56,115 nucleotides of DNA, from the IMG/VR virus record IMGVR_UViG_3300027881_000017, positions 1 through 56,115 of that record; one strand, written 5' to 3'. Under the pieces are notes generated by a model. The model was not told the origin of the DNA and did no database searches. It saw nothing but the letters and a program-made list of their open reading frames with translations. Positions 1-45,895 of the stretch are shown piece after piece (positions within the stretch are counted from its first letter, which is position 1; each line of letters opens with the position of its first letter). The DNA is from a virus. Its lineage: Duplodnaviria; Caudoviricetes. The translations under genes were made by a program, and so were the position numbers.

Positions 1-123
1 TACCAGATGCTTTAGAGATTGACGTAAATGATTCGGCAATAGCGGTTGACGTTCCATCTTTACCAGATTATTTAGAAGTAAATGTTAATGAACAACCGGT
101 TGTTACCGATGTTCCGACAGCAT
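1..123. repeat. Terminal overlap identical to 55993-56115 (circular contig junction)
   Basis: Direct comparison: taccagatgc...gttccgacagcat occurs at both ends, and the reading frame continues across the junction. Confidence 0.95.
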
Positions 124-4417: not shown

Positions 4418-4427
4418 AGGAGTAAAA

Positions 4428-4793
4428 TTGGAAAAAAGAAGAGACGATAGTGGTTATAATAAACGACGGGTTTTTGATATTAAGACCATTATTGTAATAA
4501 TGACAGCCCTATTTGGTAGTAGCGGAATTACGGGGTTAACTTCGTATTTAACTGATCCGAATATAGAACTTCAGATGAAGGTGTCTGCTATTGAGCAAGA
4601 GGAGAAATTACACTATACAGAGATTACCGCTAAAGCGGAAAACCAAGATACGCGAATGGAAAATTATATAAAAGCGCACGACAACGAAGTTCAATTAAGG
4701 CAACAATTAACCGACCAGGAGTTTGAACATATAAAAGAATTACTCCAAGAAATAAAAACGGATGTAAAATCTATAAAGAATGGCAGGCCATAA
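4428..4793 (+). CDS. Single-TM coiled-coil protein
   Basis: aaggag RBS with TTG start; TM followed by a coiled-coil-like segment. Confidence 0.5.
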   Translation: MEKRRDDSGYNKRRVFDIKTIIVIMTALFGSSGITGLTSYLTDPNIELQMKVSAIEQEEKLHYTEITAKAENQDTRMENYIKAHDNEVQLRQQLTDQEFEHIKELLQEIKTDVKSIKNGRP

Positions 4794-10257: not shown

Positions 10258-11039
10258 AATTAAGCGTATGTTATATGGTTAAAAACGAGATTTTAAGTTT
10301 GCCTGAAAGCATTATGCACACCAAGGATCTTGCCGATGAGATTTGTGTGGTTGATACCGGCAGCACTGATGGCACTGTGGGATATTTGAAAGAAATGCAG
10401 AGTGAGAATACTCTAAAGTTTGCTGAGTTTAAATGGTGCGATGATTTTAGCGCTGCCAGAAATGCTTCGCTTGATATGGCTACTGGGGATTGGATTTTAA
10501 TTCTTGACGCTGACGAGTGGATTTATCTCGATCAATTTGAAACTATCCGTAAATTAATGTCTGACCCCAACATAGATATCTGGGAGTTTAGTATTCTTAG
10601 TTTTATGCAAGATCCGCATTGGGTAAAAAAACCCGTTGTCATTAAAGGTTTTGTCGAGCGGATGTTCCGCAATGGAAAGGGTTTTAAATACGAAGGAATA
10701 GTTCATAACAAATTAATGTTTAATGGCCAGCTTTCTAAGAATAGCAAGTGCGCAATTAATAATTTTAAGTTCAGAGAGAAGCGCACCTATAAAGAAAAGG
10801 CAGCGGCAAATAAAATACTACTCGATAAAAAAATCATTGACCAGGGATGGACTTTCTTGAACTGTGTTCATTACGCAGATATTTATAGGGGATTGTGGAC
10901 ATGGTTTGGCGATGTAAAAGATGGCAACAGAGCCGTTCATTATTTAGATATGGCATTAAAAATAAAACATGATCGAAGAATGGTTGAAACTAAGAACTCA
11001 ATATTACAAGGAGTGAGATATGCCAAGTCCCGGTATTAA
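10254..11039 (+). CDS. Glycosyltransferase family 2 with helical C-terminus
   Basis: LSVCYMVKNE, VVDTGSTDGT, WCDDFSAARN, WILILDADE. Confidence 0.9.
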   Translation: MKLSVCYMVKNEILSLPESIMHTKDLADEICVVDTGSTDGTVGYLKEMQSENTLKFAEFKWCDDFSAARNASLDMATGDWILILDADEWIYLDQFETIRKLMSDPNIDIWEFSILSFMQDPHWVKKPVVIKGFVERMFRNGKGFKYEGIVHNKLMFNGQLSKNSKCAINNFKFREKRTYKEKAAANKILLDKKIIDQGWTFLNCVHYADIYRGLWTWFGDVKDGNRAVHYLDMALKIKHDRRMVETKNSILQGVRYAKSRY

Positions 11040-21253: not shown

Positions 21254-21589
21254 TCAAAAAATATTTATTAACTTTTTTTGCTTTTTCTCAGACCATTTGG
21301 CTTTAAAGCCATCTCCCACAACATATCCGGTAATAAAGCCAAATTCTCTTAAGTCTTGAATATTGAATTTTTGGAGATCAGATGGTTCGTCCTTCCAGTT
21401 TCTTTTAATTTCAAGCCAGTACCTTGCGTTGCCGCCTTCATTAAAAGAAATTAAAACCATCAAGTCTGGCAAACCGGTTTCTTGGTATCGGCCACCGTGG
21501 ATTTTTATAAATCTGATTTTTGTGGATTTTAGAGGGAATCGTTCATGAACTATTTTTTTTATTAAACTAATATTCTTGTTTTGTAGCAT
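21254..21589 (-). CDS. VRR-NUC family nuclease
   Basis: KIHGGRYQETGLPDL...WLEIK...PSDLQ. Confidence 0.85.
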   Translation of the reverse strand: MLQNKNISLIKKIVHERFPLKSTKIRFIKIHGGRYQETGLPDLMVLISFNEGGNARYWLEIKRNWKDEPSDLQKFNIQDLREFGFITGYVVGDGFKAKWSEKKQKKLINIF

Positions 21590-22445
21590 TTTTTCTTATC
21601 CAATGTTTTTGGATTACCTCAAGTGCGTTATCTAAATATTCCGATTCGGTTAAAAAATTGATACGACTAAGCTGCTTTCCTGATCTTATTTGATTTTCAT
21701 AAAACCAAAATTCTTGTAGTTCCATCCCTGTTTTCTTGTAACTAAGATCCCATTTAAATTGAACATGATCATTAAATAATAGCCCCGCGTTTATTATCTT
21801 TTCTTTTTGCTCAATCATATCTGTATACAGATGCAAGCTGGTAACAACATGAGTATATATTCCGATCGGTATTTCAAGCCAACGAGCCATGACTTCTTGT
21901 ATAAATGTAAACTGGCTGATGTCATATGGAAATCCCCACATCGCATCGTTCGATCTCATGTATCCTACCATATCGAGTCCGTTTTCAGATACCTTAAAAT
22001 TTAAAGCGAGCGTGCAGGGGGTATTTTCTCGGTCGCCTCGATTGTCTTCAAGATAGTTATAAATATTTACCACCGCTTGCCTGGTTTGTGGATCCCGCTT
22101 TAAAAGGCTATATATATATGGAAGCTGCTGAGATATCCTGTAACCGTAGGATCCCGGGTCTATGAAGTTTGATTCTACAAATCTACTATAGTTTTTGTTA
22201 TATGACGTTATGATATTTGGGTAAAAGCCGACGCCGCTGATATATGATAATTTTTCAATAATATTAAACGCGTAATTAAGCCTTCGTTCTTTTAACGTTA
22301 TCAGTGAATCGGCGGGGTTAATCTCCACGACATATGGCGTGTCGGCTGCTTCGTAATAAATTAATCCTCTACTTGTTTTTTCTACGCTTGCTATTCCGAC
22401 GCAATCAGACAGCACCTTTAAATAAATTTGATTGATACTTTTCAT
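21567..22445 (-). CDS. Thymidylate-synthase-fold enzyme, probable dCMP hydroxymethylase
   Basis: TRQAV, catalytic TPCT, YMRSNDAMWGFPYD (Asp where ThyA has Asn), SLHLY. Confidence 0.8.
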   Translation of the reverse strand: MKSINQIYLKVLSDCVGIASVEKTSRGLIYYEAADTPYVVEINPADSLITLKERRLNYAFNIIEKLSYISGVGFYPNIITSYNKNYSRFVESNFIDPGSYGYRISQQLPYIYSLLKRDPQTRQAVVNIYNYLEDNRGDRENTPCTLALNFKVSENGLDMVGYMRSNDAMWGFPYDISQFTFIQEVMARWLEIPIGIYTHVVTSLHLYTDMIEQKEKIINAGLLFNDHVQFKWDLSYKKTGMELQEFWFYENQIRSGKQLSRINFLTESEYLDNALEVIQKHWIRKNATKQEY

Positions 22446-23358
22446 TTACTTTTTCCTTTATTAATTTTGCATATTCGAGAATTTTATCATGTTTAAATCT
22501 AAGATAGTATTGCGGATGCGGAATGAGTTCATGTCTTATATTACACCTTTTTAATAAGTCAGCTGCTTTTTTCCCAAGAGCAATTACAATGCCTGGTTTT
22601 ATAGCAGCATTTTCGTTGTGCACCATCTCTTTATTAACAAAATCGTTTGATGTTTTTATTGCGTTTGTAATATAAAAATCTTGTTGATTTAATTTGGTCA
22701 ATTCTAATACCTGGTGCAAATATGCGCTTGAGTTAGAGTGATATGCAAATGCTTGTTTTCTGCTCGTTCCAATATATGATCCATCTCCATATTGATTGCC
22801 CACAAGCATGATTTTACCTCCATAAATGTTTCCAGAACATTCATACGAGGACATAGCAGCACTCCTACGACATAAAGAATCATAAAATGATAAAACATAT
22901 TCGATGAACCTATTATTGTGGTAAAGTGGCATAGAGATCATCGGTAGAATTGTCTTTTGTATAGTAGTTTCAAATAATTTTATTTCTTGTTGTATTTGAT
23001 CTTTTTTTATAAAGTTTTCATTTAGTTCGTCATGTTTTTTTCTTAAAAAATCAATGTTCGCCGAACAACATAATAACAATGCTCCTTTTGCTAATAAAAT
23101 TCTTTCAATCAAATGTTGTTCCCATGTTTCAAACGGTTTCCGTCCAGGTTTCAAGTGTGGGTATACGCAGTTCCCAAGATGAAATCGATCAAGTACTGTT
23201 CGCAAGCTTCGTGTTAATGCTTTTTCTGCATAATATTTTAATGGTTCGATGTTTTGAGGAGGCGGCCCTTCATGGACATGGTGGTAGTTTAAAATCCTTG
23301 CTAATTTTTTTGCAAGAGTTGTTTTTCCTGAATTGTTTGGTCCTTCAATTATTATCAT
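22405..23358 (-). CDS. dNMP kinase fused to a uracil-DNA-glycosylase-like domain
   Basis: IIIEGPNNSGKTT and LDRFH (thymidylate-kinase-like); C-terminal IMLVG, YITNAIK, IVIALGKKA, HPQY (family-4 UDG fold motifs). Confidence 0.75.
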   Translation of the reverse strand: MIIIEGPNNSGKTTLAKKLARILNYHHVHEGPPPQNIEPLKYYAEKALTRSLRTVLDRFHLGNCVYPHLKPGRKPFETWEQHLIERILLAKGALLLCCSANIDFLRKKHDELNENFIKKDQIQQEIKLFETTIQKTILPMISMPLYHNNRFIEYVLSFYDSLCRRSAAMSSYECSGNIYGGKIMLVGNQYGDGSYIGTSRKQAFAYHSNSSAYLHQVLELTKLNQQDFYITNAIKTSNDFVNKEMVHNENAAIKPGIVIALGKKAADLLKRCNIRHELIPHPQYYLRFKHDKILEYAKLIKEKVNEKYQSNLFKGAV

Positions 23359-24470
23359 AAGGCCTCCTTTAATAAAAGTTCAATCTCGCTTAATTCTTTG
23401 TTGAGATCCAATGAACTTGATAGTTTTTCTTTAAGTTGTGGCATTATTTTATTTCTTGTTGTTAAGTTTTGCTTGATTTCGTTTGAGTCATTGACTAAAA
23501 GATATTTTTCTATATCATGTGATCCACCATAGCCTTCAAGAGAAAAATCGGAACTTTGAAAAAACATATTTTTATCAATAAAACAAGGAATGCCTGAAAA
23601 TATTGCATGATAGTGCCGTAAGCAATATGAGGATAGTTTCATATATCTTTCTTCATATATTTGTACTGTGAATGCGTATTTGTTTATAATATTTTGTTGA
23701 TTGTTAAACAATATGTAGTTTTTATATATAAAACTGTAATTTGGCCAAAACCTATTTCCGTAATGATCTATTCTTTTTTCAATTTTTTTCAACAATCTAT
23801 CAACAGAGTGATTTCTTCCTTCTCTAATGTTTCCTACATATACTCCTTTGTTTTCATAGTCTTTAATTATTTTCATATCTTTTAAATAGTAGCATTCAAA
23901 TCTGCATAAATCAACAAATCTAAATGTATATAATTTTTCTTTAGTTTGATAAAATGTCATCGTGTCGTTTTGCTTTTCACGATATTTTTTCACATGCGCT
24001 GCATTACACCAAATTATTATTTTTTTTATATTTTTAAATATTTCTTCTGGTTTGGTTTCTAATTTTTCTTTATAATGTTGTTTAGATTCCCAACCAAACA
24101 ATTTCTCTGCATTGTAAATTAGATATAAATCGGGATCATTTTGTGAATATATTATCGAACCGCTCCATCTTGAAATAACGTTGTATGCATCGATTATATA
24201 ATCACAAGATAATAAATTTGCCCATCTGCCGTTAATGATAAATAAAATATCGTATTTTTCGGGATCAAATTTCGACCAATGTTGATAACTTACATTTCTA
24301 ACAGTTGAAAACAAGTCATCGTTTTTCAAGTCTATCGGCGTAAAAAAAGTTATTTTGTGGTCTCTTTTTCCAAGTAATTTTAATAACGTTGTCTCTATTG
24401 TATACATTTTCTTACTATCAGAAAATATGAACAGTTTTCTTGGGCACACTACAGCTATTTTATATGGCAT
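23355..24470 (-). CDS. DNA glycosyltransferase, T4 beta-glucosyltransferase-like (GT-B)
   Basis: Collinear motif matches to T4 BGT as recalled: YDILFIIN, IIYSQNDPDL, VYVGNIREGR, IDHYGN, LRHYHAIFS...FID. Confidence 0.7.
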   Translation of the reverse strand: MPYKIAVVCPRKLFIFSDSKKMYTIETTLLKLLGKRDHKITFFTPIDLKNDDLFSTVRNVSYQHWSKFDPEKYDILFIINGRWANLLSCDYIIDAYNVISRWSGSIIYSQNDPDLYLIYNAEKLFGWESKQHYKEKLETKPEEIFKNIKKIIIWCNAAHVKKYREKQNDTMTFYQTKEKLYTFRFVDLCRFECYYLKDMKIIKDYENKGVYVGNIREGRNHSVDRLLKKIEKRIDHYGNRFWPNYSFIYKNYILFNNQQNIINKYAFTVQIYEERYMKLSSYCLRHYHAIFSGIPCFIDKNMFFQSSDFSLEGYGGSHDIEKYLLVNDSNEIKQNLTTRNKIMPQLKEKLSSSLDLNKELSEIELLLKEAL

Positions 24471-25563
24471 TTTTCCTCCAGTTTTTTGTATAGTCTGTTA
24501 CGTTTGGAATGTCATCAAAAAGAATGATTTCTTTATTTTGATTAATTAAAAAATCGTAACATTGCTCTGCTACGTAAGTTCCTACGTTTGCTGGGATTGC
24601 CTTTCCTACCTCAGCCATTTGTTTGTCAATGTTTATAGTTGGTGAAAATTTAAAGTTATCTGGCAATGACATCGCTCTTGCACGTTCACGTATACTAAGT
24701 TGACGATTTAATATAGGATGAATATATTTGTCAGCGGTTAGTATAACTGGGCAAGGTTTGTTATATCGCAATTTCGTGTCCGCATAAAATCCAAATATTT
24801 TTTTTCTTTTTTTCTCTATCCGCTTGTTTAAAAAGTAATCACTTAAATGCTGGTCTTCTAAGTCGTTTATACTTTCTCCTTGTTTTAAATGTTTCCACAT
24901 ATTTAACATAGATGTTTTTCTTATTTCTATCTCATGATTATATATAAATTTCTTTCCAACTTTTTGTTTAAATCCCTTGTTTACCGGAATTTTTTCAAGA
25001 TCAGAAATGATGTCTTGAAGCACCAATGCTTTTTGTTGTTTTGGAATATCAAATTTTATATAATCTTTTTTACTTGCTGCAAAAAAAACCCGTGGGCGAT
25101 TCTGTGCAACTCCATGATTAAGGGCATTAGTAAGAAATATATTTATTTTATAATCTGATAAAATATTTTTTGATATATCTAAAATTAATTCTTGGCCTTT
25201 TTTATATAAGCCTTGGACTGACTCAAGTACTATAATTTTCGCGTTTAGTTTTTTTCCTGTTTCACAAAGTTCGTATATATATTTATTCCATTTTGAATCT
25301 AATCCTCTGTCATACGTGTTGAGTATGCTAAATCCAAAGCAAGGCGGATTGCCATAACAAATATCGCATCCTTTATAATTGTTTACTGGCCATTTGTCAA
25401 CATAGACAGGTACGTTAGGAAAATTTAACTTAAACGTATCTACGCCAAAGTTTTTAAAGTCGGGATTTTCAAAGTGTGCAATAATATCAAAATATTTATT
25501 TATGCCTACAGAAAAATGACCAGAAAAAACTGAAATACCGACCGCTGTTGGTTTAGTATCCAT
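24460..25563 (-). CDS. Atypical DNA cytosine-C5 methyltransferase
   Basis: GNPPCFGFS (motif IV), ESV (VI, normally ENV), QNRPRVF (VIII), RQLSIRERAR (IX), GKAIP (X); motif I is degenerate (VFSGHFSVG). Confidence 0.8.
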   Translation of the reverse strand: MDTKPTAVGISVFSGHFSVGINKYFDIIAHFENPDFKNFGVDTFKLNFPNVPVYVDKWPVNNYKGCDICYGNPPCFGFSILNTYDRGLDSKWNKYIYELCETGKKLNAKIIVLESVQGLYKKGQELILDISKNILSDYKINIFLTNALNHGVAQNRPRVFFAASKKDYIKFDIPKQQKALVLQDIISDLEKIPVNKGFKQKVGKKFIYNHEIEIRKTSMLNMWKHLKQGESINDLEDQHLSDYFLNKRIEKKRKKIFGFYADTKLRYNKPCPVILTADKYIHPILNRQLSIRERARAMSLPDNFKFSPTINIDKQMAEVGKAIPANVGTYVAEQCYDFLINQNKEIILFDDIPNVTDYTKNWRKNAI

Positions 25564-25984
25564 CTTCTTGCCTTCTAATATTTTCTTTTAGTTTAACTAA
25601 GTAATAATCTTCTATCTCGTCGAACGGCATATTCCAAATAAACGCAAGGTTAAATATAAAGTGTAGTAAATCAATGATTTCAAATTTAATTTCTTCTGTT
25701 TCCAGTTTATGCTCAGTATAATTCTTCCAATGTTTCCATGGAAGCCAGCCCATTATCTCAGAACATTCGTCGTGAATTGCATGGATAATTTCTTTAGTTA
25801 CTCTTAATTTTTCACCTCCAACTAAATCATCTATAGATTTTCTATTTGAATTAATAATTCCTTTTCTGATCATCATCGGTATGATATGTTTATCAATATA
25901 TTTTTTATGTTCTTCAAATATCTCGATCATTGGAATATTGAGTGGTTTCTTCGGCGTCAAATGTTTCATTGTCTTTTTCTCCAT
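25553..25984 (-). CDS. All-alpha dimeric dUTPase/dCTPase
   Basis: ECSE...PWKHWK...EIIDLLHF...KLKENIRRQEDGY. Confidence 0.85.
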   Translation of the reverse strand: MEKKTMKHLTPKKPLNIPMIEIFEEHKKYIDKHIIPMMIRKGIINSNRKSIDDLVGGEKLRVTKEIIHAIHDECSEIMGWLPWKHWKNYTEHKLETEEIKFEIIDLLHFIFNLAFIWNMPFDEIEDYYLVKLKENIRRQEDGY

Positions 25985-26486
25985 AATTTCCCTCCATCCT
26001 GTCGATTAATGAATAAAACTCAGGACTACTGTTTTCAGGTTCTAATGTTAAATTTTTTATATCATCGATCTCTTTTTTTGTTAACTCCCAAATATCTTGC
26101 ATTATTTGAATTGGAAAATTCACCATATTTTTTCCGTTTTGCGTTTTAAGAATTTCAGCATATTTCATTAAAGCTGAAATTGGTTTACCATATGCTTTTT
26201 TATTCTTATAGTCAACGAATATTATCAGAATATCTTTAGGATATTTTATATAAATATTATAGATGTTTTCTGTAAATCCTATTTTTCCATTACTCATAGG
26301 TTCTTGAGTTTTAATTTGAACTAACGTAGTGTTTCCTGTTTCTTTGTTTATCAGTACGTAGTCTATCGGTGAATATCTTTGCTTTACTTCTGCTACGTCA
26401 TATCTACCGTCATGTAAAAAATGTTCTTCAAATAATTTTTCTCCTAAATTACCTTTTGCTTCTTTTCTTTTAGTTTCATCATTCAT
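25914..26486 (-). CDS. PD-(D/E)XK-family endonuclease
   Basis: GNLGEKLF...IDY...VQIKT restriction-endonuclease-like core. Confidence 0.6.
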   Translation of the reverse strand: MNDETKRKEAKGNLGEKLFEEHFLHDGRYDVAEVKQRYSPIDYVLINKETGNTTLVQIKTQEPMSNGKIGFTENIYNIYIKYPKDILIIFVDYKNKKAYGKPISALMKYAEILKTQNGKNMVNFPIQIMQDIWELTKKEIDDIKNLTLEPENSSPEFYSLIDRMEGNYGEKDNETFDAEETTQYSNDRDI

Positions 26487-26707
26487 TTTTTCACCTCGTA
26501 TTGTTTTAACAATTGTTGAAATTTATTGTTTAATGGTTTATCAAATTTCTGCTCAAATATCTCCAGTTTTTCTTGTATGTTTTTTTTGTCCCATTCATCG
26601 AAGTGGTTATTAAAATACTTAATTGCCCGCTTACAGGCAATTCCTTCTTTAGTTTTCCATAAGATATTTAACAGTGGTTTTATCGTATTCTTTTTATGCG
26701 TTTCCAA
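26483..26707 (-). CDS. Hypothetical protein
   Basis: Operon packing with overlaps. Confidence 0.5.
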   Translation of the reverse strand: METHKKNTIKPLLNILWKTKEGIACKRAIKYFNNHFDEWDKKNIQEKLEIFEQKFDKPLNNKFQQLLKQYEVKK

Positions 26708-27379: not shown

Positions 27380-30214
27380 TTAAAATGGCAATTCATCTTC
27401 TTCTTCCTCTAACCTTTCGTCAACTTTGTCAGCATCAAACAGTTCGCCGTTTTTATGTGTTCTTAAAAATTCAGAAAATGCTCTGGTCTTTTCATATCCG
27501 CCGCTAATCCGTTTTAATGCTTTGTTGATCAGTAATTTGTTTAATAGTTTTCTTGTATCTCCCCTGTTGCCCAGATCAAACATTTCTTGTAAATCTGTCT
27601 GGCTTATTTTTTCAATTTCTAATAGTTGATCTATTACATATCTCTTGTCAACAAGAAGTTCTTTTATCTCGTCTTCGTTTAATATTTTTTTACGCGTCTT
27701 TTCAAGCCGGCTATATTCATCGTATCCCATTACCGGTTTGTCGAATATCTTACATAGGTAATTGTAGGCAAATTCTACATGAATTTTATTTACAATAAGA
27801 TTTCTGCCGTCATGGCTAAATACCATCGCTGCTGTTGCTACCGCTATTTTTGCCAATCTTACCCTTTGTGAGTTTGGTATCATTAAAGGGATTGATTCAT
27901 CATATTTAAATGCCATCCATTTTGTGCACTGATATATGTGGTTCATCGCTTCTTGAGTAAATGTTATTTGCTCTTTTTTTAATGTCCAGGCAAACATAAT
28001 AAGATCTCGGAAATCGTCGCCGACATATTTAAATGTCTTAGGCGCTTTTATTGGCGTGTTAATTATATCCATTGACACGTCGTCTATGCCCAACAATAAA
28101 ACTAAATCGAATCTACTCATATCTTCTTTTTGACCAACCAGTTCTGGGAATGCTCTGACTCCCTGACTATAATCGCCGAGCATTTTATTATGTTCTTCTT
28201 TGGTTCCACGTGGATTACTTAACCATATGAGCCGAGTACGCGCCCATGTTTTTTCTGTCCTGATTTTTGTTATCTCTGCTCTACCGCTGGATCTAATGCC
28301 GGATAATTTCGCAATTTCCCATAGAGCCAGTCCGCTCATCTCATCAACAGCTACCAATCTTTTATCATTTAATGGAATACGCCCCCAGGTTAAGTGCCAT
28401 CGGCTGCCCATCTGTTGGAGCCCACCAACCAATCCGGCAAACGAGGCACTTTCACCAAGGACCAATTCTCCAAGTTTAAAATATTCTATTAATGATTTTA
28501 TCATTTCTGTTTTTCCGGTTCTTGTATCGCCAAGCACAAGGCTTTCAAGATATCCTTTATCTAATTGCTTGTCTTCAAAACTCCACACCAATGGGCTACA
28601 ATATGTCAAAAGCGTTAATGTAAATAAATCTTCACGACCTTTTAATCCAGTAACGTGCATGACAGTACTTTCGTATATATCCTGGATTTTTTCTTCAATA
28701 TTATCTGTTTGAAATTTTTCTAATTTTTTTACAGTTTCATCGGTAAATTCGTAACTGTCGATTGCGGTCATGCTCGGCTTAGCGTTAAATATTAAATGTG
28801 TTCCTTTTTGTGTCTTTGGATGGGCGATGGTTTTTGCTTCCATGTCATATGATCTATTTGCTTCAATGTTGTGGCCAATATAATACGATCTTCTGGTTTT
28901 AAATTGTTCGTCCTGATTTATGTCAGTCGTGTATTCTATCTCCGTTGTAAGCACAACCTCTTCGATATTAAAACTTTTCTTTTCTTCGATATTAACTATA
29001 TTACATCTTTGTGGTATACCAAGTATTTCTTTCAGCCCGGTTGTTTTTTCTTTTTTAGTTACGTCGCACAACAACAGTATATTTTCATCGCTTTTTTCAA
29101 TTACTGCTTTAATGTCGCCACTGTCAAAATTCATCGGACATACCGGACATGCTTTTTCACTATAATTTATGCTGCAAGTTGCGTGTATTTTTTGTGGTAC
29201 AATATATGCCTCAATGTCTTTGCCTGAAATAAGCGCGCTTGTTCTTATAAATTTATTATTATATTTTCCATGATCTGCTTGTGCTAATGATACTTCGAAA
29301 AACTTATCTTCATCTTCGTCCTTCAAAATATACAGCGGCATGCTTTTTAATAATTTTATTAAATCTTTTTTTTGCGCACCATTTATAATATAATCTGTCA
29401 AGTCTCCACCAGGATATTGCTCAATATCAAGTGGTAAGTTTATTATTTTTATAGCGTCGGCGAATTTACTTAGTAGTTTTGCGACTCTTTGGCTGCCGGC
29501 CTTACCTGCTTCGTCTATGTCATAGCAAATCATGACCTTCTTGCCACTGAAATATTTTGCCCATTCCGCCGGAAAAGTGCTTACCCCGGTTGTACCTGTA
29601 ATTGCGTTATAGCCCAACTGGTTCGCCAGAATACAATCCATTTCTCCTTCACAAAGCATAACCGTATTTTTGTATAAGTTTTCTGCTGGAAATAATCTTG
29701 CAGCACCATACCCACTTTTCCAGCTTGCGACCTTTGGCTTTCCTTTCTCTGGTCTTGGATCGTGAATTCTGATATTTACTATTTCGCCATATATATCATA
29801 TATTGGGATTGTAAATTTTTGATTAAACGCCCCAATTTTATACTTTTTTACTGTTTCTATTTCTAACCCTCTTTTGCGCTTTAACCAATTAATAGCTGTT
29901 TCGTTTTTAATTAGTTCTTGATGCATTGTATCTATTTCTGATTTATCAATTTTTTTCTGTTCTGTTTTAATGTTGTTTTCAGCAGCAATCTGCTTTAAGT
30001 CTAAATTTTGCTTTTTACACCATGTAAGAAAATTACCCTTTTCGTTGCAAGTGTGGCAATAATACATGCCCGTCGCGGCGTTGATGCTCATGCTGGCATG
30101 CTCGTCTTCGTGGAACGGGCAATTTATGATTATTTGGTTTGGACCAGTACTCTTTCCACGCGGGTAAAAATCAATAAAGTGTATTTTTGAAAGAAGCTCA
30201 TCGACCCAGTTCAT
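27380..30214 (-). CDS. Primase-helicase fusion: CHC2 zinc finger, TOPRIM and MCM-type AAA+ helicase
   Basis: CPFHED...CHTC; CEGEMD, YDID, DLTD; GDTRTGKT, SFAGLVGG, VDEM, SNP, SRFDL. Confidence 0.88.
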   Translation of the reverse strand: MNWVDELLSKIHFIDFYPRGKSTGPNQIIINCPFHEDEHASMSINAATGMYYCHTCNEKGNFLTWCKKQNLDLKQIAAENNIKTEQKKIDKSEIDTMHQELIKNETAINWLKRKRGLEIETVKKYKIGAFNQKFTIPIYDIYGEIVNIRIHDPRPEKGKPKVASWKSGYGAARLFPAENLYKNTVMLCEGEMDCILANQLGYNAITGTTGVSTFPAEWAKYFSGKKVMICYDIDEAGKAGSQRVAKLLSKFADAIKIINLPLDIEQYPGGDLTDYIINGAQKKDLIKLLKSMPLYILKDEDEDKFFEVSLAQADHGKYNNKFIRTSALISGKDIEAYIVPQKIHATCSINYSEKACPVCPMNFDSGDIKAVIEKSDENILLLCDVTKKEKTTGLKEILGIPQRCNIVNIEEKKSFNIEEVVLTTEIEYTTDINQDEQFKTRRSYYIGHNIEANRSYDMEAKTIAHPKTQKGTHLIFNAKPSMTAIDSYEFTDETVKKLEKFQTDNIEEKIQDIYESTVMHVTGLKGREDLFTLTLLTYCSPLVWSFEDKQLDKGYLESLVLGDTRTGKTEMIKSLIEYFKLGELVLGESASFAGLVGGLQQMGSRWHLTWGRIPLNDKRLVAVDEMSGLALWEIAKLSGIRSSGRAEITKIRTEKTWARTRLIWLSNPRGTKEEHNKMLGDYSQGVRAFPELVGQKEDMSRFDLVLLLGIDDVSMDIINTPIKAPKTFKYVGDDFRDLIMFAWTLKKEQITFTQEAMNHIYQCTKWMAFKYDESIPLMIPNSQRVRLAKIAVATAAMVFSHDGRNLIVNKIHVEFAYNYLCKIFDKPVMGYDEYSRLEKTRKKILNEDEIKELLVDKRYVIDQLLEIEKISQTDLQEMFDLGNRGDTRKLLNKLLINKALKRISGGYEKTRAFSEFLRTHKNGELFDADKVDERLEEEEDELPF

Positions 30215-32169: not shown

Positions 32170-32420
32170 TACAGTTCCTCTATTTCATTTAAAGTTACGA
32201 ACAATTTTTCTATGTCTTTAATCACTTTTTCTGCTCCTGGCTTGCCTATTATTTCTTCCTTCATAGTAGTGAGAATTTCTTTGTGTACTAATGCTAATTT
32301 TTTATCTGGTAGCATTTTTGTAGCAAGATGCATTAATTTAATAGATCCGGATATTCTGGCGTCTTCAAGACAATCCATGGTTATTTTAACCATGTCGCTT
32401 ATTGCTTCTGGAAGCTCCAT
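32169..32420 (-). CDS. Hypothetical protein
   Basis: TAATG coupling at both ends. Confidence 0.6.
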   Translation of the reverse strand: MELPEAISDMVKITMDCLEDARISGSIKLMHLATKMLPDKKLALVHKEILTTMKEEIIGKPGAEKVIKDIEKLFVTLNEIEEL

Positions 32421-34027
32421 TATAATGCCCCTTTCAATTCGTTAATATCTAATTTCCTGTTGACATCTTCTTTCTGTTTTAGTTTCTTATATATATAATT
32501 TTCAACTGTCCCTTTCGTTAGTAAATGGTAGACCGTCATTTTATTTTTCTGTCCAATTCGTTCAATTCGTTGCATGCTCTGGATATAATTCTCCAGATTA
32601 AAGTCCTGTTCATAATAAATTATATTAGAACAGAACTGTAGATTTAATCCGTGACCGGCAGATGCTGGGTTGGCAATAAGAATTTGGCAGGCACGTGGGT
32701 TTGTTTTTTTATGTTCAAATACTTCTAATGCGACGCTTTTTTCTGATCCAAAATATGCAATCGACTTTCCGTTTAATTTTTCTCTTATGTGCTCTATTGT
32801 TCTATTAAAATGAGCAAATACTATGCATTTCTTATCACCGATTTGATCCAAGATTTCAAACATCGCGGCGTCTTTTGGATTACTATTTGATATTGGAAAT
32901 GACTTTTCGTTCATATATATAAACCCACTGGCAATCTGTCTTAATTTCATTAATTTCGTTATAACGAAAGGAGCGGTTACTGCGTTATTTTCATTTAACC
33001 AGACAATGCATTCGTTTTTCATCTGCTCATAAACTTCCTTTTGCTTGCTAAGCATCTCAACTTTACGGATCTCTTCCACCAGCGGTGGTAAATCAATGCA
33101 TTCGCGTTTATGATGCTGTATGCTTACACCGGCTGCTTTTCTTTTGAATACATCCAATGCCTCTGGTTTGGGAAACCATTCATAATTCAAATAGCCGCCC
33201 TGGGTAAAATACCGGTGACGGAACGCATAAAACACTTCGCCAAATATATTTGGCTGGACAAACTTGTACTGGTTAAATGCGTCCTGCAGGCCGTTCGGCG
33301 CCAGCGTACCGGTCATGATGCTTCTATAGCTAACCATATCTCTTAGCTTCATGATCGCTTTGCTGCGCTGTGCATTCGGCGATTTGATCCGGGTTGATTC
33401 ATCTAATATAATTGCCTTCCATTTGATTTGCATTAATTCATCTAATACTCGAGGAACCATCTCGTAGTTGATTATATATATGCGTTGATTCCAAAATATT
33501 TCGTGGCATTCATTATCTGCCCAACAATCCATAGTTGTATTTAATACTTTTTTAACTTTAGCAGATCCTTCATTTAAAATTATTCCAGTCAATTTACATT
33601 CATCAAGTTGCTTCTCCCATACCGGCTCCATGATCGATTTCGGGCATATAACCAATACCGGCCAATCGTTTCGCTCAAGCATCAATTCGATCTGGACCAA
33701 CGTTTTGCCGGTCCCGGGCTCGCTCAGGTCGGCAAAGTATTTTGTCTTGCGAGCAACTTGAACGCTTTCTTTTTGATGCTTATACAGATTTTTTAAAACC
33801 AGGTCGGTCGCCGGAATTCTATCAGAATCTTCTATACGACTTATCACAGGCTGTGGCAAGGAAATGCCAAGGAGGGAATTTGCGAGGACTACGGTGTCTT
33901 CGTCATATGGAATCGACCATAGCTTTTGTTTGGGGTTCCAGCGCCAACCTGGAATTTGCTTAATTACTTCTTTCTGGTCATAAGGCACTTTTATATATAC
34001 CCTATTTCCTTGAATTAGATGCGTCAT
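32420..34027 (-). CDS. SNF2-family helicase/ATPase
   Basis: EPGTGKT, ILDES, MTGT, GHGLNLQ, QSMQRIERIGQ. Confidence 0.93.
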   Translation of the reverse strand: MTHLIQGNRVYIKVPYDQKEVIKQIPGWRWNPKQKLWSIPYDEDTVVLANSLLGISLPQPVISRIEDSDRIPATDLVLKNLYKHQKESVQVARKTKYFADLSEPGTGKTLVQIELMLERNDWPVLVICPKSIMEPVWEKQLDECKLTGIILNEGSAKVKKVLNTTMDCWADNECHEIFWNQRIYIINYEMVPRVLDELMQIKWKAIILDESTRIKSPNAQRSKAIMKLRDMVSYRSIMTGTLAPNGLQDAFNQYKFVQPNIFGEVFYAFRHRYFTQGGYLNYEWFPKPEALDVFKRKAAGVSIQHHKRECIDLPPLVEEIRKVEMLSKQKEVYEQMKNECIVWLNENNAVTAPFVITKLMKLRQIASGFIYMNEKSFPISNSNPKDAAMFEILDQIGDKKCIVFAHFNRTIEHIREKLNGKSIAYFGSEKSVALEVFEHKKTNPRACQILIANPASAGHGLNLQFCSNIIYYEQDFNLENYIQSMQRIERIGQKNKMTVYHLLTKGTVENYIYKKLKQKEDVNRKLDINELKGAL

Positions 34028-35583: not shown

Positions 35584-35982
35584 CTAATTTGTGCTGTCCT
35601 CTTTGTCTATCGCCTGCAGAATTTCTATAATATCGTTCTTAATTTCTTTTTTAAGATTCTTGCCCACCTTAACCGTCTCTTCAACTCGCTCAAAAGTTAT
35701 CTTGTCAGCAATATACATTTGCAGCAGTGTCGTTTTGTCCGGCACAAAAACTGCAAGAAATACGCAAATCAAGAACGGCATAAATAGTTTCTTGAAAACG
35801 TTTTGACACTTTTTATAGTCGTCATTATCTTTGCCGTACTCTATGAGATTTACCGTCGCGCCTATTTTGGAAATAACCGAGCCAATGCCCAGCAATACAG
35901 AACAGACGCACGCAGCAATAACTACATTATTAACAACCTGCAGCATATAAATAAAAAATGGGCTTACGATGGATTCATCCAT
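35584..35982 (-). CDS. Hypothetical membrane protein
   Basis: ggaggt RBS; two TM segments. Confidence 0.65.
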   Translation of the reverse strand: MDESIVSPFFIYMLQVVNNVVIAACVCSVLLGIGSVISKIGATVNLIEYGKDNDDYKKCQNVFKKLFMPFLICVFLAVFVPDKTTLLQMYIADKITFERVEETVKVGKNLKKEIKNDIIEILQAIDKEDSTN

Positions 35983-36208
35983 TGAACACCTCCATTACTT
36001 TACGTTTCATTAAAGCATCACAACGATAACACATCTTTGGCATTATAGCGATCGGATGATTACCAAATTTCAAATACGTCGCTGGCTTCAGATGTATCTT
36101 CTGGGCAATGCGATGGCCCTTCTCATCCTTCGTCGGAAATTCGGTTCCGCATATCCCACAAGTGTATTCGCCGTTCTTGCTTTGATGTTTTCCAAGTTTT
36201 TTAATCAT
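35975..36208 (-). CDS. Zinc-finger protein
   Basis: CGICG...CYRC. Confidence 0.55.
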   Translation of the reverse strand: MIKKLGKHQSKNGEYTCGICGTEFPTKDEKGHRIAQKIHLKPATYLKFGNHPIAIMPKMCYRCDALMKRKVMEVFNG

Positions 36209-36243
36209 GGTCTAATTTAATCAATTTTTATTAAAATAAAAAA

Positions 36244-36771
36244 TTATTTTTTATCAATTAAATCTTTTATCTCTTTCGCTATTTTCCGTTTACAGCTATA
36301 ACAAAACATCGTGATTGAAAATACCTCAGATTGAGCAAACATTATATAATCCCTGTTGCATAAGTTTTCTCTGAACTTATCATATCTTTTATGGCATAGG
36401 TTGCATTCGTATTTACCATATTTCTTTGCTATCATATTATCATAAATTTTTTCTGCTTTTTCGACTGTTTCCTTGTCGGTTCCAAATGGATTATCAAATG
36501 CCTGGTCATGCGCTAATTTTCTTAGTTCTCGTTCTTCTTTTAATAAAATCAGTTTGTCATCGTTGCGGTCCTTTTTTACTATTTTTTCGATCTTTTTTAA
36601 TAGTTTTTTATCACATGAGTGACAGATTTTTCCGCAATCGACGATGTCAAAATTCCTGAAGCTAATTTTCCGGTTTGGTTTTATAAATTTTTTCTCCGGA
36701 GTCTTTTCCCAAAAATTAGCAAAAACGGGGAACTTTTTGGCGCAAAATTCGCATTGGTAGAACTTGTTCAT
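36244..36771 (-). CDS. Double zinc-finger protein, first leftward gene
   Basis: aggag RBS; two CxxC...CxxC units. Confidence 0.6.
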   Translation of the reverse strand: MNKFYQCEFCAKKFPVFANFWEKTPEKKFIKPNRKISFRNFDIVDCGKICHSCDKKLLKKIEKIVKKDRNDDKLILLKEERELRKLAHDQAFDNPFGTDKETVEKAEKIYDNMIAKKYGKYECNLCHKRYDKFRENLCNRDYIMFAQSEVFSITMFCYSCKRKIAKEIKDLIDKK

Positions 36772-39199: not shown

Positions 39200-39402
39200 C
39201 CGATACGGAGAAAATGCGGATAGGGATCAAAGATTCTGATCAACTGTCGCAATTTATTAAGGATGTAATTGTCATGCCGATGGAACACAAGATAACTGGC
39301 AATGTAACTATCCATTTTTTAGAAGGAGAAATAAGAGCCGTAGAAATAAATCAGCATACCAGAGTGCTTAGTCAAATAACTTTCTTTAAGGAGGTAAAAT
39401 GA
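39196..39402 (+). CDS. Small hypothetical protein
   Basis: ATGA coupling with TerL. Confidence 0.55.
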   Translation: MTDTEKMRIGIKDSDQLSQFIKDVIVMPMEHKITGNVTIHFLEGEIRAVEINQHTRVLSQITFFKEVK

Positions 39403-40082
39403 TAAATGTAATAATTCCTAACTATGGGCATGAATGTTACTTGCCAGATCTAATCGCTTCGCTGACTCATCAAGACAATGCAAATTGGATAGCAACAATA
39501 TATAACGACGATGACCGACCAGGCAAGGAACTTGGATATGTGTTTGATGAGCATTGGGTTTATTGTAAGGACGACAGGAAGAGGATAGGGCAAGCAGCAA
39601 GATTTAACCAAGGGATTGTAAAAGCGGATAATGAATGGATTTCTTTTATGGGCGCTGATGATATTGCGATGCCATGGAAGATAAGTTCTATATTGGATTA
39701 TGCAGAAAATGCTGATGTCATTTATACTGACGCTGTTCAGTTGATGCTAAACGACACAAGGTTGTATATCAAAAGCGATAAACCTATTGAACAGATTTGT
39801 GATCAAAACTTTATAGTAGCGTCTACCGTAGCGGTTCGTCGGCAGTTTTTATTAGATCATATCATACGGTTTGACGAGAAGTTGTCATATGGAGAGGATT
39901 GGTTGTTTTATAATCAACTTGCTATTGCCGGAGCAAAGTTTAAGTACCTGCCCTGGCCTACCGTATATTACCGGGATTATACTTCGAATATCATGATTAG
40001 GGGCAGACCGGAATGGCACCAAAGGAAAAAACAAATTTATGATAAGATTCAGCAGTTATATACTAATATTAAAGGAGGATAA
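39399..40082 (+). CDS. Glycosyltransferase family 2
   Basis: VIIPNY, FNQGI, FMGADD, GEDW. Confidence 0.88.
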   Translation: MINVIIPNYGHECYLPDLIASLTHQDNANWIATIYNDDDRPGKELGYVFDEHWVYCKDDRKRIGQAARFNQGIVKADNEWISFMGADDIAMPWKISSILDYAENADVIYTDAVQLMLNDTRLYIKSDKPIEQICDQNFIVASTVAVRRQFLLDHIIRFDEKLSYGEDWLFYNQLAIAGAKFKYLPWPTVYYRDYTSNIMIRGRPEWHQRKKQIYDKIQQLYTNIKGG

Positions 40083-40818: not shown

Positions 40819-41027
40819 TGGATACTTGTAAATGCGACAATTGCGGAAATGATATGCCAAAAATATTTGGCAGAACAGTAGCGGTGGTGGAAATAAAGAA
40901 AGATGATCATATTGATATGGTCGTTACTTACAGAAGATGGCGGTCCTTAGAGCCTGGGAAAGAGGCTGATATTTGCGAGGAATGCCACAGCAAGTTCATT
41001 AGAAAATTTAAGCAGGAGACGCAATGA
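40818..41027 (+). CDS. Zinc-finger protein
   Basis: CDNCG...DICEEC. Confidence 0.65.
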   Translation: MDTCKCDNCGNDMPKIFGRTVAVVEIKKDDHIDMVVTYRRWRSLEPGKEADICEECHSKFIRKFKQETQ

Positions 41028-45885: not shown

Positions 45886-45895
45886 GAGAACAAAA

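Follow-up and report, generated by a model that had tools for sequence, protein, structure and literature searches.

A run of overlapping genes in the window, by which we mean the whole stretch of 56,115 nucleotides analysed, is best read as a T4-like pathway for glycosylated 5-hydroxymethylcytosine (5hmC), three anomalous enzymes notwithstanding, and we consider this reading about evenly balanced between right and wrong. The pathway can be set out in five steps: (i) a pyrophosphatase resembling T4 gp56 would hydrolyse dCTP (and dUTP) to the monophosphate; (ii) a thymidylate-synthase (TS)-fold enzyme, judging by its active-site residues, would use methylene-tetrahydrofolate as one-carbon donor to modify dCMP at C5, most likely giving 5-hydroxymethyl-dCMP; (iii) a YorR-like kinase domain would phosphorylate the modified dCMP, as suggested by its fold, its DR motif and the conserved adjacency to the TS gene; (iv) host NDP kinase and the host replicase, the latter invoked because no phage-encoded DNA polymerase was found in the genome, would finish the process, the modified base thereby entering phage DNA; and (v) a transferase of the T4 beta-glucosyltransferase (BGT) family would move a sugar from a UDP-sugar to the 5-hydroxymethyl group in DNA, an activity predicted from its family membership. 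An earlier note on this DNA had proposed a T4-like glycosyl-hmC pathway, of which the gp56-like, dCMP-type TS, nucleotide kinase and BGT roles are retained, whereas the hydroxymethylase is not secured and the kinase is not gp1.

Layout and base composition of the operon

The 56-kb record comes from an uncultivated phage and, bearing terminal repeats, represents the whole genome. The run occupies positions 21254 to 26707 of the window and contains the six genes flagged earlier as overlapping and co-oriented, a description that the ORF coordinates confirm, all being on the minus strand. From 26707 down to 21254, successive genes overlap by 4, 71, 11, 11, 4, 41 and 23 nt:

26483..26707, minus strand, 74-aa ORF (orf74), function unassigned, Pfam matches sub-threshold only
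25914..26486, minus strand, probable PD-(D/E)XK-fold nuclease, 190 aa, first of the six flagged genes
25553..25984, minus strand, all-alpha NTP pyrophosphatase (dUTPase_2/MazG-like), T4 gp56 dCTPase/dUTPase homologue, 143 aa (Pfam, PHROG, BLASTP)
24460..25563, minus strand, C5-cytosine-methyltransferase (C5-MTase)-fold protein, 367 aa (PF00145)
23355..24470, minus strand, T4 BGT-family DNA glycosyltransferase (GT-B), 371 aa (hhalign, Foldseek)
22405..23358, minus strand, fusion of P-loop (d)NMP kinase and family-4-like UDG fold, 317 aa (Pfam, AF2 model)
21567..22445, minus strand, dCMP-type thymidylate-synthase-fold enzyme, 292 aa (PF00303, phrog_5131)
21254..21589, minus strand, VRR-NUC-like PD-(D/E)XK nuclease, 111 aa (phrog_93)

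Since orf74 overlaps the 190-aa nuclease gene by 4 nt, the co-oriented run continues upstream of the flagged interval, and at the other end the 111-aa VRR-NUC-like gene, with its 23-nt overlap with the TS gene, is likely a seventh operon member. The cassette had also been described as AT-rich, and sliding-window GC places the deviation mid-cassette (0.278 to 0.309, against 0.382 for the window): the glycosyltransferase gene has a GC content of 0.278 and the C5-MTase-like gene 0.309, two further values being 0.299 and 0.288. GC fell to 0.305 or below in 35 of 551 sliding 1.1-kb segments, 28 of which lie at 22.8 to 25.8 kb, and the AT-richest stretch of the window holds the BGT-like and C5-MTase-like genes. 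Separate acquisition of the mid-cassette genes is plausible.

Enzymes of the cassette

The earlier assignment of the 143-aa protein to the all-alpha dUTP/dCTPases agrees with matches to PF08761 (dUTPase_2, E 9.3e-11) and phrog_173 (E 1.1e-12) and with BLASTP homology to T4 gp56 (E 2e-10, 43% identity over the C-terminal 46 residues). Its homologues adjoin kinase and TS genes in three related loci (L008, L009 and L010).

The TS homologue matches PF00303 (Thymidylat_synt, E 8.8e-17) and phrog_5131 (E 1.5e-43); its best solved relative is the CMP hydroxymethylase MilA (E 9.2e-23), and every NCBIfam thymidylate-synthase equivalog scores far under its cut-off. It carries C144, T145, M163, R164-S165-N166-D167, D175 (ThyA N177), H205 and Y207, and E. 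coli ThyA F176/N177 align with Tyr/Asp, as expected from the PYD noted earlier in place of the PFN of ThyA. The substitutions N177D, H147T and Q165M (ThyA numbering) are all as in T4 gp42, and positions 177 and 147 are reported to rank highest when conservation is compared between metagenomic contigs with and without cytosine modification (PMC8670742). S165 and R122 are deoxyribo-type residues by the criterion given in PMC5175136. A role as 5-hydroxy-dCMP synthase was rejected, D169 being retained where PMC13326640 describes D169N as diagnostic. Asn141 stands three residues before the catalytic Cys, at the position of ThyA L143 and D145 of T4 dCH, where the T4 dCH structure paper places an Asp/Glu signature of hydroxymethylation (PMC6400193). 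On sequence, the hydroxymethylase call is not secured because Asn occupies this signature position.

In the fusion protein, the kinase (about residues 1 to 168, YorR/TMPK-like) precedes the UDG fold (about 170 to 308), an architecture recognised in the earlier note and borne out by Pfam (UDG, E 5.1e-10, residues 180 to 295; Thymidylate_kin, E 3.8e-7, residues 4 to 36), by a compact AF2 model (pLDDT 85.8, pTM 0.87) and by fold matches. The kinase fold is nearest YorR, dTMP kinases and dNKs (VIA Z 19.4 and rmsd 2.5 over 165 residues against YorR 2axp; Z 11.6 to 13.6 against dTMP kinase entries). Homology to T4 gp1 was rejected: the sole match of the family profile in T4 is a stretch of 21 residues (E 0.014, positions 3 to 23) containing the P-loop. 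For the UDG half, the profile matches TM0511 UDG (E 1.2e-4), and the domain reaches TM 0.76 over 135 residues against a UDG-superfamily cluster (Atlas). The P-loop, D57-R58, N232 and H281 are kept in eleven same-length fusion homologues; the UDG motif-A acid is Asp or Glu in 11/11 of these and Asn in the window protein. Most likely, the domain would recognise uracil in DNA and serve in repair or surveillance, a role analogous to that of the UDG domains joined to polymerases in T-modified phages.

The 371-aa protein has no Pfam or PHROG match, and a search of 1.84 billion representatives gave only eight proteins, itself counted, at E <= 1e-3. It is nevertheless a genuine member of the T4 BGT family, as previously suspected: hhalign aligns it with T4 BGT at 99.3% (E 1e-20, 315 columns), its family HMM gives T4 BGT 97.7 bits, and Foldseek ranks 1 to 6 for its AF2 model (pLDDT 75.9, pTM 0.81) are all T4 BGT (E 7.7e-13 to 2.2e-11, TM 0.62 to 0.71), the first non-BGT match being BshA (2.7e-7). 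T4 BGT residues D100, R191, R195 and R269 are kept, and transferase function is predicted.

Two components had been placed outside the T4 pathway, and the C5-MTase fold and the UDG fold are both confirmed. The C5-MTase-fold protein matches DNA_methylase (PF00145, E 8.2e-32) from residue 25, past motif I, scores 84.6 bits on TIGR00675 against a cut-off of 100.65, and is 28% identical to its best non-self homologue. Aligned with E. coli Dcm, SpCmoX and homologues, it retains the catalytic PPC (C75), E114 and Q154-x-R156-x-R158 and has atypical motifs I (FSGHFS, broken), IV (NPPCF), VI (ESV) and X (GK, K321), where K321 aligns with SpCmoX R350, HhaI N304 and the Dcm motif-X Asn. The cytosine-activating residues are thus kept and the cofactor pocket is rebuilt; the fold had been called correctly, but the Lys at the N304/R350 position had been missed. 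The enzyme would most likely add a second C5 substituent, methyl, or carboxymethyl from host Cx-SAM, to cytosines that escaped replacement.

For the 190-aa protein, no Pfam, PHROG or NCBIfam family was assigned, so that the PD-(D/E)XK call, made previously, lacks a family match and draws instead on ESM Atlas feature neighbours (restriction endonuclease, NOV_C, PDDEXK_5, PDDEXK_14 and Hjc clusters, scores 0.90 to 0.93) and a visible D42...Q57-x-K59 motif. By structure it reaches TM 0.72 against unnamed phage clusters and 0.54 against a PDDEXK_14 cluster, the putative nuclease fold comprising residues 1 to 149 and being followed by an acidic tail. The 111-aa protein matches the phrog_93 endonuclease (E 1.1e-5) and, under the cut-off, Pfam VRR_NUC (E 0.074), and shows a PD...E-I-K motif. 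Conceivably, these flanking nucleases act on unmodified DNA.

Related loci and alternative explanations

The trio of NTP pyrophosphatase, kinase(-UDG) and TS (Asp177) recurs in other phages, AXL3 among them, and is accompanied by a dCMP deaminase in Stenotrophomonas phage AXL3, Bacillus phage G, Actinomycetia phage DSL-LC01, MW202621 and IMG/VR contigs. A TS homologue shares the kinase locus in 5/5 cultured-phage or GenBank loci and in 9/11 IMG/VR loci found with the kinase; of the two without it, one ends at the contig end. A Methyltransf_23 class-I methyltransferase lies within the module in five loci (L001, L006, L008, L010 and L021), and in L008 and L010 it occupies the slot between pyrophosphatase and kinase that here holds the C5-MTase-like and BGT-like genes. 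The neighbourhood search for the same cassette thus recovered the trio, but the BGT-like, C5-MTase-like and 190-aa genes are absent from all related loci compared. Of 37 enzymes, just 2 are reported to cut AXL3 DNA, and the sites of both consist of A/T alone (PMC7504290). In the literature, we found no determined product for the AXL3-type pyrophosphatase/kinase/TS module.

The anomalies of the cassette can be accommodated in other ways. The TS homologue could be a dCMP methyltransferase as in Xp12, with 5-methyl-dCTP entering DNA and the BGT-like and C5-MTase-like proteins serving other ends. Among 17 other Asp177 homologues examined, residue 143 is Asp in 14, Arg in 2 and Asn only in Xp12, a phage whose DNA carries 5mC (PMC7653180), and T4 dCH D145N is described as inactive, making no 5hm-dCMP (PMC6400193). 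We nonetheless regard this route as unlikely, since the TS homologue belongs to the hydroxymethylase-like clade, its closest relative (in L021, 37-41% identity) has Asp at position 143, SPO1 dUMP hydroxymethylase is nearer to it (29% identity) than the Xp12 enzyme (21%), T147 and M165 are gp42-like where Xp12 has Pro and Leu, and the DHFR gene that adjoins the Xp12 enzyme is missing from this genome. Furthermore, 5mC offers a BGT-family transferase no acceptor, and as no Tet_JBP (TET) domain was found in the complete genome, the hydroxyl acceptor can come only from the TS route. Somewhat less likely still, the C5-MTase-fold and BGT-like proteins could form a post-replicative two-step module, the TS route being separate, partial or inactive: the former would install a handle, for instance carboxymethyl from Cx-SAM, and the latter would glycosylate that handle or hmC. 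With an 11-nt overlap and the lowest GC content (0.278 and 0.309), the two genes are missing together from every related locus and fill the methyltransferase slot; in addition, K321 lies at the position of CmoX R350, the residue binding the carboxyl of Cx-SAM, and engineered M.MpeI N374K also accepts Cx-SAM (PMC12783734). Against this, the residue is Lys rather than Arg, the motif NPPC rather than the SPPC of CmoX, no CmoA was found in the genome and no CmoY-like ligase was seen, and the kept BGT residues suit the ordinary 5hmC reaction. We also know of no precedent for carboxylate glycosylation by a BGT-family enzyme, which counts against such a module.

A kinase-UDG fusion acting on DNA, phosphorylating 5hmC there and/or exchanging an activated group, would be the cytosine counterpart of the 5-hmdU DNA kinase and glycosylase-fold pair of thymidine hypermodification. 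According to PMC5889632, all four T-hypermodifying lineages have just two genes in common, one for a DNA kinase and one for a DNA-glycosylase-fold enzyme, and the kinase co-associates with a TS-family hydroxymethylase; here the two folds are fused in one compact model beside the TS homologue. We hold this to be improbable, since the family profile found 0/3 matches in the 5-HMUDK phages PhiW-14, SP10 and Ab18, the aGPT-Pplase fold is described as helix-hairpin-helix and not UDG (PMC5889632), the kinase has no UDG domain in 8/16 related loci and still adjoins the TS gene, the invariant D-R motif and TMPK/dNK-like fold suit a mononucleotide substrate, and no second kinase able to make the modified dNDP was found in the genome. 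Equally doubtful is partial decay of the cassette, with several enzymes catalytically lost and the modified base no longer made: substitutions at key residues in the TS homologue (Asp to Asn), UDG motif A (Asp/Glu to Asn) and MTase motifs I, IV, VI and X, together with AT-richness, would fit, but the frames of 143 to 371 codons are all open in 28-36% GC DNA and tightly overlapping, the remaining catalytic residues are all kept, the genome is complete with terminal repeats, and the identical TS protein occurs in three sources (JGI/IMG, Logan and ENA). The T4-like glycosyl-5hmC reading has its own difficulties: TS Asn141, the UDG motif-A Asn and a kinase unlike gp1 would all speak against it, and complete replacement of cytosine, if true, would leave the C5-transferase no substrate.

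Comparison with known systems

As in T4, the pyrophosphatase is homologous to gp56, the transferase to BGT and the TS-fold enzyme to gp42 (with C146, T147, M165, RSND and D177), and the base would be made before replication and the sugar added after it. Unlike T4, Asn replaces gp42 Asp145, the kinase is YorR-like rather than gp1-like and fused to a UDG fold, an extra C5-MTase-fold gene is present, the phage has no DNA polymerase of its own, and the cassette genes lie in one 5-kb operon of a siphovirus-like genome. The AXL3-type module shares the kinase-UDG fusion family beside a TS homologue with Asp177, whereas in its loci residue 143 is Asp, a dCMP deaminase is present and the BGT-like, C5-MTase-like and 190-aa genes are missing. 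Xp12 deoxycytidylate methyltransferase shares Asp at 177 and Asn at 143, but it keeps W80 and R127, has P147 and L165, is flanked by DHFR and resembles E. coli ThyA (30% identity) more than the window protein (21%).

CmoX, the DNA cytosine C5-carboxymethyltransferase of Synechococcus phage S-B43 (PDB 8YF3), shares the C5-MTase fold (SpCmoX, pairwise BLASTP E 4.9e-17, 23% identity) and a basic residue at R350/HhaI N304, Lys being found also in engineered M.MpeI N374K; the window protein differs in Lys for Arg, NPPC for SPPC and a motif I without GG, and its gene lies in a TS/BGT operon of a genome in which neither CmoA nor CmoY was seen. Finally, the base-modifying phages YerA41 and phiLo also fuse a UDG fold to a DNA-precursor or replication enzyme, and uracil removal by their UDG-A-family DNA polymerase fusions has been proposed to protect modified DNA (PMC13697223); in the window, unlike these phages, the partner is a kinase and not a polymerase, the modification would be on C and not T, and the motif-A acid is Asn.

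Layout, composition and genomic setting of the cassette

The operon reads as a T4-like glycosyl-hmC pathway placed in a new genomic setting and carrying three active-site anomalies (in the thymidylate synthase [TS] homologue, the UDG domain and the C5-methyltransferase [C5-MTase]-fold protein), an interpretation to which we give about an even chance of being right. To our knowledge, phages other than the T4-like ones have T4-type hmC pathways of which just the outline is known, and text searches of the literature returned no paper on an operon combining TS, BGT and C5-MTase genes, an absence that is no proof. The six overlapping, co-oriented genes that an earlier note had placed at 21567-26486 are real: they lie head-to-tail on the minus strand (190, 143, 367, 371, 317 and 292 codons; overlaps of 71, 11, 11, 4 and 41 nt), and the gene run exceeds this interval, with orf74 upstream (4-nt overlap) and a 111-codon VRR-NUC-like gene downstream (23-nt overlap). 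Four of the six genes have Pfam matches above the gathering score (dUTPase_2; DNA_methylase; UDG with Thymidylate_kin; Thymidylat_synt), with which the PHROGs concur. The dUTPase_2 match belongs to the 143-aa protein, which over its last 46 residues shares 43% identity with the C terminus of T4 gp56 (E 2e-10), in keeping with the earlier call of an all-alpha dUTP/dCTPase. The 190-aa protein has no family match but has ESM-Atlas neighbours that indicate the PD-(D/E)XK clan, and the nuclease call is retained as a supported lead rather than a finding.

The AT richness noted for the cassette was borne out by sliding-window GC, with 28 of the 35 most GC-poor stretches (among 551 sliding windows of 1.1 kb) at 22.8-25.8 kb and the other 7 at 35.9-36.5 kb. 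The glycosyltransferase, C5-MTase-like, pyrophosphatase and nuclease genes have a GC content of 0.28-0.31, the kinase-UDG gene 0.325 and the TS gene 0.364, against 0.382 overall. The second very AT-rich stretch, at 35900-36500 (GC minimum of 0.264 in the 1.1-kb window from 36200), is the point at which minus-strand gene blocks switch to plus-strand ones, and it could be an origin or a regulatory region. No match to the cassette DNA was found by blastn among 50,697 phage records, and scans for promoters (26 sites versus 33.8 in shuffles) and terminators (4 versus 4.0) gave no excess.

The window spans an entire IMG/VR virus record (56,115 bases), which has direct repeats at its termini and a CheckV completeness of 100%. 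Open reading frames at 3-1505 (+) and 54633-56114 (+) extend past both record ends, which is consistent with a terminal repeat and one long, perhaps tail-fibre-like, gene across the junction. Terminase, portal, capsid, tape-measure and tail genes occupy the plus strand, the portal being only 27% identical to that of the nearest cultured phage, Geobacillus phage GBK2, and a minus-strand block at about 17-37 kb holds replication genes. Genes for sugar metabolism are scattered within the structural modules.

Replication and sugar-metabolism genes of the window
27380-30214, minus strand: primase-Toprim-MCM fusion, 944 aa
30346-32011, minus strand: three successive genes in the replication block, of Pfam families named for cyanophage Pam3 gp34, gp33 and gp32
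32420-34027, minus strand: SNF2 helicase
10254-11039, plus strand: NDP-sugar 4,6-dehydratase/epimerase (PF16363, E 4.7e-63)
39399-40082, plus strand: GT2 glycosyltransferase
41024-42052, plus strand: GT2 glycosyltransferase
49697-51730, plus strand: GT2-TPR-GT1 fusion, 677 aa

The sugar-metabolism genes could serve the glycosylation of virion proteins, or the supply or extension of a sugar on DNA. No family-A or family-B DNA polymerase domain occurs in the complete genome, and therefore the host replicase would have to accept any modified dNTP.

The glycosyltransferase and the thymidylate synthase homologue

The relationship of the 371-aa glycosyltransferase to BGT is visible by profiles and fold only, and sequence searches alone nearly fail: the protein has no Pfam or PHROG match, tblastn against phages gave none, and pairwise BLASTP was not significant for either T4 BGT (E 0.33) or the transferase of phage ATCCB (E 3.3). 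A single 47%-identical protein was found among 5.8 billion clusters, the family comprises 8 proteins (self included) at an E value of <= 1e-3 among 1.84 billion representatives, and no related loci were found in IMG/VR or the JGI metagenomes. Comparison of profiles by hhalign matched the protein to T4 BGT over 315 columns (99.3%, E 1e-20; identity about 16%), and the family HMM reached 97.7 bits with T4 BGT and 54.1 bits with the protein annotated as BGT in Lactobacillus phage ATCCB. With an AF2 model built from a seven-sequence alignment (pLDDT 75.9, pTM 0.81), Foldseek ranks 1-6 were all T4 beta-glucosyltransferase (E 7.7e-13 to 2.2e-11), the next protein, BshA, following five orders of magnitude behind. 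In T4 BGT, Asp100 is catalytic and Arg191, Arg195 and Arg269 bind the UDP-phosphate; all four are kept, each in at least 8 of 9 aligned sequences, while E22 corresponds to a gap and E272 to His. The BGT-like call is thus secured at the level of family, and the protein, a whole GT-B enzyme, is a bona fide, very divergent member of the BGT family.

The TS homologue (PF00303, E 8.8e-17) has as its best solved relative the CMP hydroxymethylase MilA (E 9.2e-23), whereas thymidylate synthases match no better than 1e-9; among phage proteins, it matches gp319 of phage G and the dUMP hydroxymethylases of the SPO1 group best. In an alignment with E. coli ThyA, T4 gp42, SPO1 gp29 and 15 other phage homologues, it keeps the catalytic Cys (ThyA C146) and E58, Y94, R166, H207 and Y209 (ThyA numbering), and the Asp previously noticed at the position of ThyA N177 is confirmed as D175, matching gp42; Asp at this position has a role in cytosine specificity, according to the available sections of PMC13326640 and PMC8670742. 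Ser at ThyA position 167 (S165) and Arg at 126 (R122) are of the deoxyribose type, as opposed to the Ala and Lys of MilA (PMC5175136, available sections), and a MilA-like ribonucleotide enzyme was rejected on these residues. A 5-hydroxy-dCMP synthase of the RB69 gp48 type was likewise rejected, since D169 is retained (D167) and Asn at this position is described as diagnostic of such synthases in the consulted part of PMC13326640.

The anomaly lies three residues before the catalytic Cys, where the acidic hydroxymethylase residue is absent and Asn141, preceded by Glu140, is found instead. An assembly slip behind Asn141 is unlikely, because the identical TS protein sequence occurs in three sources (JGI/IMG, Logan and ENA). 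Asp or Glu at T4 D145 activates water and is the signature of hydroxymethylation, and the D145N variant of T4 dCH is inactive, as given in the accessible text of PMC6400193. Residue 143, the equivalent ThyA position, is Asp in 14, Arg in two and Asn in one of 17 other TS-fold proteins with Asp at ThyA N177, and the sole Asn belongs to phage Xp12, the DNA of which contains 5-methylcytosine (PMC7653180, in its accessible text). The nearest relative of the window protein, encoded at L021 (37-41% identity), has Asp at 143.

TS homologues of related loci with variant active sites (ThyA numbering)
L020 (Xp12), 45326-46195: Asn143 and Asp177; flanked by DHFR and dCMP deaminase
L011 (IMG/VR), 9955-10638: Asp177, Arg143 and His173, a third active-site variant
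L015 (IMG/VR), 4113-4928: the same variant as L011

Asn143 could mark dCMP methyltransferases, and the window enzyme has the same pattern as that of Xp12 (N141 with D175); the overall identity between the two is 21%, and there is no DHFR, the partner expected to recycle dihydrofolate, in the genome. By phmmer, neither a dCMP deaminase nor a second TS was found in it. No Tet_JBP occurs in the complete genome, on which ground a TET-dependent route was rejected, which leaves the TS route as the sole source of a hydroxyl group on which the BGT-like enzyme could act. The most persuasive reason to think that 5hm-dCMP is still the product of the TS homologue, Asn141 notwithstanding, is this need of the BGT-like enzyme for a hydroxyl acceptor in a genome devoid of TET.

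The C5-methyltransferase-fold protein, the kinase-UDG fusion and the related module

The C5-MTase-fold protein, 28% identical to its closest database protein, matches PF00145 (E 8.2e-32) from residue 25 on, past motif I, and stays under the cut-off of the NCBIfam dcm model TIGR00675. In an alignment with nine database homologues, E. coli Dcm and SpCmoX of phage S-B43 (CmoX being the DNA cytosine C5-carboxymethyltransferase that uses carboxy-SAM [Cx-SAM]), it keeps C75 (the motif IV Pro-Cys), E114 (the motif VI Glu) and Q154, R156 and R158 (motif VIII, Q-x-R-x-R). All the conserved positions that surround the transferable group are changed: (i) motif I is FSGHFS and not the F-x-G-x-G-G of the nine homologues, Dcm and SpCmoX, bar one with GAMG; (ii) motif IV is PCF versus the usual PCQ; (iii) motif VI is ESV versus ENV; and (iv) motif X is G-K versus G-N, with Asn in 9 of 10 comparators and Lys (K321) in the window. 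The C5-methyltransferase-like assignment accordingly stands for the fold and the nucleophile motifs but not for motifs I and X of the AdoMet pocket. K321 aligns with Arg350 of SpCmoX and corresponds to HhaI N304 and M.MpeI N374K; as described in the sections of PMC12783734 consulted, R350 of SpCmoX binds the Cx-SAM carboxyl and the engineered M.MpeI N374K uses Cx-SAM. A CmoA gene usually lies near CmoX, and the CmoX survey demanded SPPC and Arg; the window C5-MTase-fold protein, with NPPC and Lys, would therefore escape that survey. No CmoA (TIGR00740) was found in the genome, and Cx-SAM could be supplied by host CmoA.

Both domains of the kinase-UDG fusion (AF2 model: pLDDT 85.8, pTM 0.87) are common to eleven homologues of 294-317 aa, and both halves proposed by the earlier note hold as folds. 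A G-x-x-x-x-G-K-T P-loop and D57-R58 of a D-R-(Y/F/H) motif are invariant in 12 of 12 sequences, and residues 1-168, to which the Foldseek and VIA alignments are confined, kinase matches filling the lists, superpose on SPbeta YorR (VIA Z 19.4, rmsd 2.5, 165 residues), with dTMP kinases and dNKs at Z 10.8-13.6. The C-terminal half has a UDG fold, as identified by Pfam (40 bits against a cut-off of 24.3), by the match of the fusion profile to the Thermotoga UDG TM0511 (E 1.2e-4) and by the Atlas, in which the UDG set is assigned to 28 of the 30 neighbours that have names (TM 0.76 over 135 residues); a single-sequence PDB search with this part was not significant. The family-4 UDG model TIGR00758 scored 19 bits against a cut-off of 125. 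Family-4 enzymes are marked by G-E-x-P-G (motif A), the Asn of an I-T-N-x-x-K segment and His-Pro (motif B). Within the fusion family, neither the Asn that recognises uracil (N232) nor the His of motif B (H281) varies, while the motif-A acid, Asp or Glu in all 11 homologues, is Asn in the window. Judging by the sequence, the Fe-S cysteines of family-4 UDGs are seemingly absent from the fusion. We read the kinase domain as a putative dedicated dNMP kinase for the TS product. A relationship to 5-HMUDK, the 5-hmdU DNA kinase of thymidine-hypermodifying phages (PhiW-14, SP10 and the M6 group), was not found, the family profile having no match at E <= 1 in PhiW-14, SP10 or Ab18 (0 of 3 records), and in T4 that profile matched no more than 21 residues (positions 3-23, where the P-loop lies). 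No paper on a kinase-UDG fusion was found by literature text searches, which again is no proof.

By tblastn, four phages have the fusion, namely AXL3, Bacillus phage G, DSL-LC01 and MW202621, and in each it adjoins or lies close to a dCMP deaminase and a TS homologue that has Asp177. A TS homologue is present in 9 of the 11 IMG/VR loci found by the kinase, and all 16 related loci divide into 8 with the fusion and 8 with the kinase alone; none related to the kinase-UDG family was found in GTDB genomes or JGI metagenomes. The module of these relatives comprises an NTP pyrophosphatase, a class-I methyltransferase (Methyltransf_23, 5 loci), the kinase(-UDG), TS, dCMP deaminase and often PolA.

Class-I SAM methyltransferase genes (Methyltransf_23) of the related loci
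L001, 4602-5426
L006, 5691-6440
L008, 7184-7957
L010, 3827-4621
L021, 5827-6591

The recurrence of the Methyltransf_23 gene (AXL3, MW202621 and three IMG/VR contigs) suggests a module product beyond plain 5hmC. Literature searches found no paper identifying the modified base of this module (AXL3, G); for AXL3 DNA, the part of PMC7504290 consulted reports that, of 37 restriction enzymes, just 2 cut it, each at a site made up of A/T alone. In the window, the C5-MTase-fold and BGT-like genes occupy the position between those for the pyrophosphatase and the kinase; neither gene occurs at any other locus examined, and their GC is the lowest. These observations fit, but do not prove, the separate acquisition suggested earlier, with the two genes as a pair of tailoring functions added to a more ancient precursor module.

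Alternative readings and comparison with known systems

The proposal of a T4-like glycosyl-hmC cassette stands as far as four T4-type roles are present, including the BGT and gp56 homologues, but the TS homologue has Asn141, a substitution with which T4 dCH is inactive. The C5-MTase-fold protein may be an ordinary m5C methyltransferase, and a changed cofactor is a serious alternative. A C5-transferase requires unsubstituted cytosines, and therefore either some cytosines escape replacement or the enzyme acts on something else. A broader reading would have the operon perform a mixed, two-route cytosine hypermodification, in which glycosyl-5hmC is made by way of the TS homologue and kinase, and the remaining cytosines receive a C5 adduct, carboxymethyl or some other non-methyl group, from a natural Lys-type relative of CmoX using host Cx-SAM, with the widespread kinase-UDG fusion as a hitherto unrecognised dedicated component of cytosine-modifying phages. 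Taken as a whole, we consider this broader reading improbable.

On the reading of a T4-like pathway with three anomalies, one small complete genome brings together a BGT-family enzyme, a 'D145N' TS-fold enzyme, a Lys-type C5-MTase and a kinase-UDG fusion, and each anomaly bears on a topic of present interest: the signature of hydroxymethylases, enzymes that use Cx-SAM naturally, or the modified base of phages like AXL3. The TS homologue probes the generality of that signature as opposed to Asn as the mark of a methyl product (Xp12), the C5-MTase-fold enzyme naturally has Lys at the position whose mutation gives M.MpeI the use of Cx-SAM, and the occurrence of the fusion family in AXL3 and G gives the module cultured relatives. 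The glycosyltransferase may offer a new 5hmC-labelling reagent or another sugar specificity.

Compared with known systems, the cassette is alike in part and different in part. The TS homologue is identical to T4 gp42 at C146, T147, M165, R-S-N-D (166-169) and D177 and differs from it in Asn at gp42 Asp145. CmoX has Arg350 and SPPC, whereas the window protein has Lys321 and NPPC in a genome without CmoA. The related module includes a dCMP deaminase, for which phmmer found no counterpart in the window genome. The UDG domain may be read as an optional uracil-directed accessory, for which the nearest precedent would be the active UDG-polymerase fusions of T-modified phages described in the consulted sections of PMC13697223, the UDG being fused to a polymerase in those phages and to a kinase in the window.
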